Assembly (NCBI RefSeq): GCF_024223415.1
Contig: NZ_CP100500.1
Direction: 5' to 3' (one strand)
DNA length: 64,000 bases
From: Escherichia coli
Lineage (GTDB): Bacteria > Pseudomonadota > Gammaproteobacteria > Enterobacterales > Enterobacteriaceae
Position numbers and translations under genes: made by a program. Shown in pieces: positions 3,348 to 3,668 of this stretch; positions within the stretch are counted from its first letter, which is position 1, and the number at the start of each line of letters is the position of its first letter. A model generated the notes under the pieces. It made no database searches. It was not told the origin of the DNA and saw only the letters and a program-made list of their open reading frames with translations.

Positions 3348-3668
3348 TTAATAACCGTCATCATTTACGTTATCAGGGTAATCACGCCATATTTCATCAG
3401 TAAGCGACGGTAGCCCCATCTGTTGTATTGTCCTGTCTGCGGCCCTTCTGACTGCGTGAACATCATAACGGTTTTCAGGTATCGGGCGCTTTGCCTTCCT
3501 GATACATTCCCTTGCTCTCATTGCCGCAAGTTCTCTGTGCCTGTCTTCCTGAAGAGTAATCATCACATCCTGCCACCTTCTGGCAGCCCGTCGCCACAGT
3601 CCCCTGCTCTCGAGTTCTTCTGCTGTCGCGTCGCTTATTGTCCGGTTCTTCGGTGTGCTGTTGTTCAT
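3348..3668 (-). CDS. PerC-like small transcriptional regulator (106 aa)
   Basis: N-terminal motif EELESRGLWRRAARRW resembles PerC-family prophage regulators from memory; GGGGAG SD upstream. Confidence 0.45.
   Translation of the reverse strand: MNNSTPKNRTISDATAEELESRGLWRRAARRWQDVMITLQEDRHRELAAMRARECIRKAKRPIPENRYDVHAVRRAADRTIQQMGLPSLTDEIWRDYPDNVNDDGY

Follow-up and report, generated by a model that had tools for sequence, protein, structure and literature searches.

Background

Among the PerC-family regulators of Escherichia coli, PchA, PchB and PchC (group 1), which are carried by lambdoid prophages of enterohaemorrhagic E. coli (EHEC), and PerC, which is encoded in the perABC operon of the pEAF plasmid of enteropathogenic E. 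coli (EPEC), are proven activators of LEE1/ler in the enterocyte effacement locus (LEE) that act by H-NS anti-silencing (PMC4764244). PchA associates with AT-rich regions in H-NS-bound DNA, activates LEE1 only under silencing by H-NS, StpA and Hha, and lowers the occupancy of H-NS both in vivo and on reconstitution (PMC4764244); association with such DNA together with relief of H-NS/StpA silencing is known for PchA only. For PerC, effects on the fim switch and on nitrate respiration have additionally been described (PMC5293775). The Pch proteins of groups 2 and 3, including PchD and PchE, are reported to have little effect on the LEE and not to activate LEE1 (PMC6265319), and PchE, largely when over-expressed, lowers csgD expression and curli and raises flhDC expression and flagella (PMC6265319, PMC7369912). 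Here we describe a gene of this family that is located at positions 3348..3668 of a 64,000-nucleotide stretch of E. coli DNA (contig NZ_CP100500.1 of assembly GCF_024223415.1), which is referred to as the window, and compare its locus with these systems.

PerC homologues have already been described on phage-inducible islands of E. coli (PMC6092414, PMC11773190). LEE1 fusions did not respond to the PerC-like genes of the islands EcCIEDL933 and EcCICFT073, whereas a LEE1-lux fusion was silenced by EcCIMP1_025 of E. coli MP1 (PMC11773190). The Gram-negative phage-inducible chromosomal islands, or PICIs, are defined by an integrase, alpA, a replicase with an iteron origin, genes of capsid morphogenesis and a small terminase (TerS), together with the lack of tail and lysis genes (PMC10085698, PMC6092414).

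Assignment of the 106-amino-acid protein to the PerC/Pch family

The region 3348..3668 holds an open reading frame (ORF) of 106 amino acids (aa) on the minus strand, a strand that the initial annotation of the window leaves unstated, with an ATG start at 3668-3666 according to the ORF listing and the sequence, and residues 23-32 of the deduced protein read GLWRRAARRW, as given in that annotation. There, the motif had been likened to PerC/Pch-type prophage regulators. A profile search, named beforehand as the refuting test, returned a full-length match to the Pfam family PerC (PF06069) with an E value of 9.5e-27 and 93.5 bits, compared with a curated cutoff of 22.6 bits, covering model positions 2-90 of 90. 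PerC was the only Pfam family detected at E <=0.01, no match to a profile of the ANR (AraC negative regulator) type was found, and a scan of NCBIfam yielded no model matching the protein. Moreover, PHROG 994 was matched with an E value of 9.4e-28, and the N-terminal half of the protein gave matches to three PHROGs that bear the label 'transcriptional activator'. The gene at the same position of a 99.9%-identical locus in E. coli GF4 is annotated in RefSeq as 'PerC family transcriptional regulator' (WP_001066127.1). No other PerC-like ORF was found in the 64-kb window.

A family alignment of 72 sequences revealed G[LFM][WY]RRA[AS]xRW as the most conserved block, a pattern that was derived automatically for scanning of the sequence collection; the sequence GLWRRAARRW is therefore no chance motif. 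The residues R26, R27, A28 and W32 are invariant across the 72 aligned homologues, and the nearly invariant residues A16, L19, E20, G23, R31, C55 and G85 are all in place in the 106-aa protein. Pairwise BLASTP comparisons were made with PerC from the perABC operon of the EPEC plasmid pMAR7, with PchA, PchE and PchD of the O157:H7 strain Sakai and with EcCIMP1_025. Significant identities of 47% (over 90 aa) to PchE, 42% (over a segment of 76 residues) to EcCIMP1_025, 37% to PchA and 34% to EPEC PerC were obtained. In a joint alignment, the protein and an 87%-identical allele form a lineage of their own that is nearest to PchE, and a C-terminal DEIWR(D/N)YPD block is common to the 106-aa protein and the PchE-type proteins but missing from PchA, PerC and PchD. 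With 47% identity and 106 aa, the protein departs from the close identity and the length of 90 aa that characterize group 3 (PchE), and it differs from the 90-aa PchE by an N-terminal extension of nine residues and an acidic VNDDGY tail. The ratio of nonsynonymous to synonymous substitutions (dN/dS) between the perC allele in the window and a 92%-identical allele is 0.38, as is expected of a real coding gene. Judged by its sequence, the gene at 3348..3668 is a genuine gene for a small regulator of the PerC/Pch family, belonging to a divergent lineage nearest to PchE of group 3.

The family comprises small helical proteins of about 85-105 aa that are carried by mobile elements of Enterobacterales, and the 106-aa protein with its predicted helices and its island conforms to this. 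A survey of one genome per species detected 46 related loci, all of them in Enterobacterales, and about 14-17 of these show the satellite context primase-SSB-(ProQ)-PerC, in which SSB denotes the single-stranded DNA-binding protein. Among the non-satellite PerC loci, a Pfam scan of 108 neighbouring genes recovered no family more than twice and thus no conserved context. The representative search also returned a 4,669-aa protein with 40 'PerC-like' stretches, which turned out to be a trypanosomatid FAZ1 repeat protein and was rejected as a compositional artefact.

Comparison of the carrier island with described PerC-family loci

The island carrying perC belongs to the phage satellites of the PICI type, has tRNA-Pro/yejM as its integration site and is not a prophage. 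Of the initial likening to PerC/Pch-type prophage regulators, the PerC/Pch type stands, by the PF06069 match and by the BLASTP matches to PerC, PchA and PchE, and the prophage does not. The surrounding 11 kb match the chromosome of E. coli GF4 at 99.9%. All genes of the island are located on the minus strand and follow one another, starting from tRNA-Pro(GGG), in the order integrase, small ORF, putative AlpA-family regulator, 'Icd-like' region, DUF4222 and RepA-type helicase, then iterons, 83-aa ORF, SSB, PerC, ProQ/FinO and tandem terminators, and finally a 68-aa ORF, the genes for the major capsid and head decoration proteins and a 137-aa ORF of the scaffold-like kind. The initial placement of the gene within a replication/regulation module is borne out by this order, since perC follows the RepA helicase, the iteron origin, the 83-aa ORF and SSB. 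In the GF4 locus, a second copy of the attachment core GGCACGAGAG is located about 810 bp left of the point at which the window starts, and the island is therefore about 11.25 kb long and cut by the window edge. In that 99.9%-identical locus, the core GGCACGAGAG and arm-type CGTATAACTAAA repeats are present at both ends of the island. The layout of integrase, putative alpA, replicase, iteron origin and capsid genes, the tRNA site, the size of about 11 kb and the lack of tail and lysis genes resemble the Gram-negative PICIs of the EcCICFT073 type (PMC6092414, PMC10085698). In contrast to these, the island copy in the window lacks a small terminase; as a satellite, it would presumably depend on a helper phage for induction and packaging.

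The closest characterized counterpart is the pchE (ECs_1588) locus in the element Sp7 of E. coli Sakai. Sp7 is equated here with CP-933C/OI-51, and in published work the copy of this element in EDL933 goes by the name EcCIEDL933. PchE is the best-matching characterized protein and shares the Pfam family and the DEIWRxYPD block with the 106-aa protein, and its gene is part of the order primase, 83-aa ORF, SSB, pchE, small ORF and head genes. Compared with the window, identity amounts to 85% for the adjoining 83-aa ORF and to 82% for SSB but to only 47% for the PerC-type proteins. Sp7 further differs in small ORFs following pchE instead of the ProQ/FinO gene, in a primase instead of the RepA helicase and in a full capsid-forming gene set, compared with only capsid, decoration and scaffold-like genes in the island studied here. 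The iterons of Sp7 (TAACCCGCA) likewise differ, in step with the different replicase. EcCIMP1_025 resembles the 106-aa protein as a PerC-family accessory cargo of an E. coli phage-inducible island, EcCIMP1 (PMC11773190), but it belongs to another island, one at tRNA-Thr, of which it occupies the far end with no SSB gene next to it, and its silencing of LEE1 has been shown experimentally. PchA, PchB, PchC and PerC share the family, the signature motif, the size class and the predicted helical architecture with the 106-aa protein and are found on lambdoid prophages or in the plasmid-borne perABC operon, whereas the 106-aa protein is satellite-borne, more distant in sequence and grouped with the non-activating types.

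Sister islands at tRNA-Pro/yejM have the integrase, the putative alpA and the DUF4222, SSB and capsid modules in common and differ between SSB and the capsid operon. In this slot, the island of strain Nissle contains no perC, that of DEC9B a 90-aa PchE-type allele (44% identical to the 106-aa protein and 90% to PchE) with two small ORFs, and the island in the window the 106-aa allele with the ProQ/FinO gene. Accordingly, perC is optional cargo that shares with the ProQ/FinO gene a variable slot, which is bounded by the replication module on one side and by the capsid module on the other. Complete E. coli genomes, 5,426 in all, were searched; 597 of them contain the capsid module, 726 the PchE-type allele and 51 the perC allele described here, nine with at least 99% and 42 with about 92% identity. 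One of the latter carriers was inspected, strain 702/18 (L052, 8687-9573), in which perC is intact in a remnant flanked by insertion sequences (IS), with a truncated SSB gene and a truncated ProQ gene on either side. The category is thus a known one, the protein being annotated in RefSeq and PerC having been described on satellites and prophages of E. coli, and its signature was recognized correctly from the raw sequence. Specific to this locus are the pairing with ProQ/FinO, the terminase-less island copy and the allele itself, which is rare and divergent, reaches no more than 47% identity with the members studied so far and has an N-terminal extension and an acidic tail.

Transcription of perC

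The stop codon of SSB and the start codon of perC are separated by 17 nt, and because of this short gap there is no space for a separate perC promoter. The transcript of pchE starts, according to 5' rapid amplification of cDNA ends, 10 nt upstream of ECs1586 and is a polycistronic ECs1586-ECs1587-pchE RNA (PMC7369912, section 4.4). By analogy, perC is probably co-transcribed with the upstream SSB gene. From the polycistronic pchE RNA, the 17-nt gap and the two terminators following proQ, we infer a unit consisting of the 83-aa ORF (hyp83), SSB, perC and proQ that would start close to the origin, with perC lacking a promoter of its own. The iteron region would, again by analogy with pchE, also contain the promoter of this unit. 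The first of the two terminators is composed of GCCGGA-GCAA-TCCGGC followed by T6 (2658-2637), and the second (2630-2589) has a stem of 10 bp between A7 and T4; a copy of the first (GCCGGA) terminator also closes the capsid operon at 363-392. Satellite-like loci with the combination SSB-ProQ-PerC are moreover present in E. albertii (L007), Leclercia (L015) and Pantoea (L025).

Proposed role of the protein and alternative explanations

With moderate confidence we favour the interpretation that perC is a PerC-family cargo gene in a PchE-like satellite position, transcribed with hyp83, SSB and proQ, the product of which acts in trans on H-NS-silenced promoters and is no LEE1 activator. The gene would be transcribed from the origin-proximal region up to the tandem terminators and hence be expressed together with the replication genes of the island. 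By family analogy, the protein would act in trans at AT-rich promoter regions that are silenced by H-NS/StpA, be it in the host or in mobile elements residing in the same cell; the silencing complex would be loosened, and the expression of surface or motility-type regulons would shift in consequence. The protein would neither activate LEE1 nor be needed for capsid expression by the island itself. An influence on host gene expression, which the initial annotation had proposed, is thus suggested by homology. If the allele modulates motility, curli or fimbriae regulons, transfer of the satellite could, speculatively, shift colonization traits in poultry and human isolates; no link to LEE-type virulence is expected.

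Several points weigh against this interpretation. The identity of 47% to the nearest studied homologue is too low for a transfer of regulatory targets. The predicted structure comprises five helices (predicted local distance difference test score of 81) and forms a helical array resembling tetratricopeptide repeats (TPR), with no recognizable or canonical DNA-binding fold, and a sequence search of solved structures gave only chance-level matches (E >=0.05) and no relative with a solved structure. Deletion of pchE changed little, with csgD and flhDC expression falling only about twofold (PMC6265319, PMC7369912). The G+C content of the island of about 50% gives no hint that the island itself needs anti-silencing, and a scan for consensus sigma-70 promoters upstream of hyp83/perC (4345-4545) detected none.

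Instead of acting at DNA, the protein might work by protein-protein contact, either as an anti-activator or adaptor, as in the ANR idea for EcCIMP1_025, or with a partner associated with the nucleoid or with RNA polymerase; we consider this unlikely, though it deserves attention. A wider proposal, in which PerC-family proteins are TPR-like protein-interaction modules and PerC and ProQ/FinO, recurring next to SSB, form a two-gene satellite cargo that is expressed along with replication of the satellite and reprograms host or helper-phage expression both transcriptionally, through nucleoid silencing, and post-transcriptionally, through RNA chaperone activity, is quite doubtful. The location of perC just upstream of the morphogenesis operon, the weak -35 and perfect -10 elements of the capsid promoter, which are typical of activator dependence, and the PHROG label 'transcriptional activator' of related phage proteins would fit a late activator of the satellite that turns on the adjoining capsid and decoration operon after the onset of replication. 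However, the promoter and leader region of about 200 bp is nearly identical in the three aligned islands of Nissle, DEC9B and the window; perC is independent of the capsid-operon promoter. Since sister islands with a PchE-type allele or without perC keep the same promoter, perC is not the specific late activator of the island, and this explanation, rejected on the sister-island comparison, is improbable also in view of the two terminators between the perC unit and the capsid operon and of the occurrence of the capsid module in 597 genomes compared with only 51 for the allele.

The scenario implied by the initial annotation, in which a PerC/Pch-type protein cross-activates virulence operons, corresponds to a group-1-like activator, which would turn on ler/LEE1 as well as type III secretion in hosts of the attaching-effacing kind. 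The protein has the Pfam family and the signature motif in common with PerC and PchA, and over-expression of PchE raised ler expression 2.1-fold (PMC7369912). On the other hand, it is only 34-37% identical to PerC and PchA and groups with the PchE-type proteins, LEE1 is reported not to have been activated by Pch proteins of groups 2 and 3 or by the satellite homologues of CFT073 and EDL933 (PMC11773190, PMC6265319), and EcCIMP1_025 with its 42% identity over 76 residues even acted as a silencer (PMC11773190). The carrier genomes listed are mostly poultry or poultry-meat isolates, and the rest are mainly human. By analogy with the published evidence on the nearest relatives, cross-activation of virulence by the 106-aa protein is therefore unlikely, and a LEE1 activator of the group 1 kind is very improbable. 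Least credible is a decaying passenger gene without function: although the allele is rare, the island copy lacks a small terminase and 42 genomes contain the gene only in an IS-riddled remnant (as judged from the one examined, 702/18), the reading frame, the ribosome-binding site and all family-conserved residues are intact, the dN/dS ratio is 0.38, and perC has remained intact in the remnant while both of its neighbours are truncated.

Gene content and ends of the island

The features of the island are compiled in Table 1. Capsid-morphogenesis genes (major capsid, decoration and scaffold-like) are present, and tail and lysis genes are lacking. The island may itself provide the capsid, decoration and scaffold proteins without providing a portal protein, protease or large terminase. 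No ORF and no tblastn match for TerS was found in this island copy, whereas the sister islands of Nissle and DEC9B contain TerS (L053, 859-1401; L054, 847-1389); the copy lacking TerS may be packaging-defective.

Table 1. Coordinates of features of the perC-carrying satellite island in the window
Feature	Position	Strand	Basis and remarks
tRNA-Pro(GGG)	10420..10496	minus	integration site next to yejM
Tyrosine integrase	8960..10201	minus	RefSeq annotation, ORF listing; adjoins the attachment site
Putative AlpA-family regulator	8257..8463	minus	RefSeq name; Pfam Phage_AlpA E 0.0035, 17.6 bits, below the cutoff of 21
RepA-type replicative helicase (AAA_25)	4546..5961	minus	Pfam E 8.6e-44
Iteron array	4335..4548		GTGGGGAG-type repeats, TTTT[G/A]CT[C/A]CCCACTTTTT, spacing of ~84 bp; flanked by the 83-aa ORF and the gene for the RepA helicase
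83-aa ORF (hyp83)	4093..4344	minus	probable first gene of the perC unit; 85% identical to Sakai ECs_1586; PHROG 1231
SSB	3686..4096	minus	directly upstream of perC; Pfam SSB E 6.7e-16; 82% identical to Sakai ECs_1587
Shine-Dalgarno-like GGGGAG	3673..3678 (3678-3673)	minus	4 nt before the perC ATG; read from sequence
PerC/Pch-family gene	3348..3668	minus	PF06069 E 9.5e-27; RefSeq WP_001066127.1
ProQ/FinO-domain gene	2684..3268	minus	second cargo gene, last of the unit; Pfam ProQ E 2.1e-26; RefSeq start coordinate
Two tandem intrinsic terminators	2589..2658	minus	after proQ; read from sequence
Capsid-operon promoter region	2449..2509	minus	weak -35 TTGCGC; perfect -10 TATAAT 2487-2482; leader hairpin 2478-2459, then T-run
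Morphogenesis operon	391..2425	minus	downstream of the perC unit; PHROG 29, 49, 1999, 53; RefSeq names
68-aa ORF		minus	first in the morphogenesis operon
Major capsid protein	1164-2219	minus	
Head decoration protein	817-1152	minus	
Scaffold-like 137-aa ORF	391-804	minus	match to PHROG 53 (head maturation protease) in its C-terminal, scaffold portion

The iteron array is probably the replication origin of the island. The layout of a weak -35, a perfect -10 and a terminator-like leader upstream of the capsid operon (2449-2630) is conserved in the three sister islands; this control region resembles a late promoter under the control of antitermination or of an activator, which a helper phage might trigger. 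The left end of the island (window positions 1-296; L001, 8730-9390) is rearranged and contains inverted segments. Arm-type (G/C)GTATAACTAAA repeats are present in inverted and direct orientation at 10230-10290 by the integrase gene and again at the far end of the island (150-230; L001, 8258-8282), and several TCCGGT repeats are found at both ends of the island. The terminal (G/C)GTATAACTAAA and TCCGGT repeats are probably binding sites of the integrase or an excisionase.

The 595-aa 'Icd-like' coding sequence (CDS) that is annotated in RefSeq at 6455-8242 on the minus strand looks over-extended and is protein-like at its C-terminus only. It includes the best sigma-70 match of the island (7815 to 7787, minus strand, 11/12), which is flanked by a 24-nt inverted repeat (7748-7771 and 7809-7832). 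A small plus-strand ORF within it, at 7812-7985, looks like one for a ribbon-helix-helix protein, and the AT skew flips across 6900-7600. The 'Icd-like' region (6455-8242, 7748-7985) may be the real regulatory switch of the island. An Rfam scan of the island identified only the tRNA and no known RNA partner for the ProQ/FinO protein.

Weak similarity to the N-terminal half of PerC (E 6e-4 to about 1) was observed in some phage records, among them Escherichia phage Pollock (67014-67178), Salmonella phage FSL SP-076 and the Klebsiella phages Pylas and KpCHEMY26, in which the respective genes are annotated as 'transcriptional activator'. Moreover, NZ_CP148430.1 (L003), a circular, non-mobilizable 'plasmid' of 12,152 bp, carries genes for an integrase, for a primase of the TOPRIM/DUF927 type and for a PerC-family protein and looks like an excised and circularized satellite that was assembled as a plasmid.
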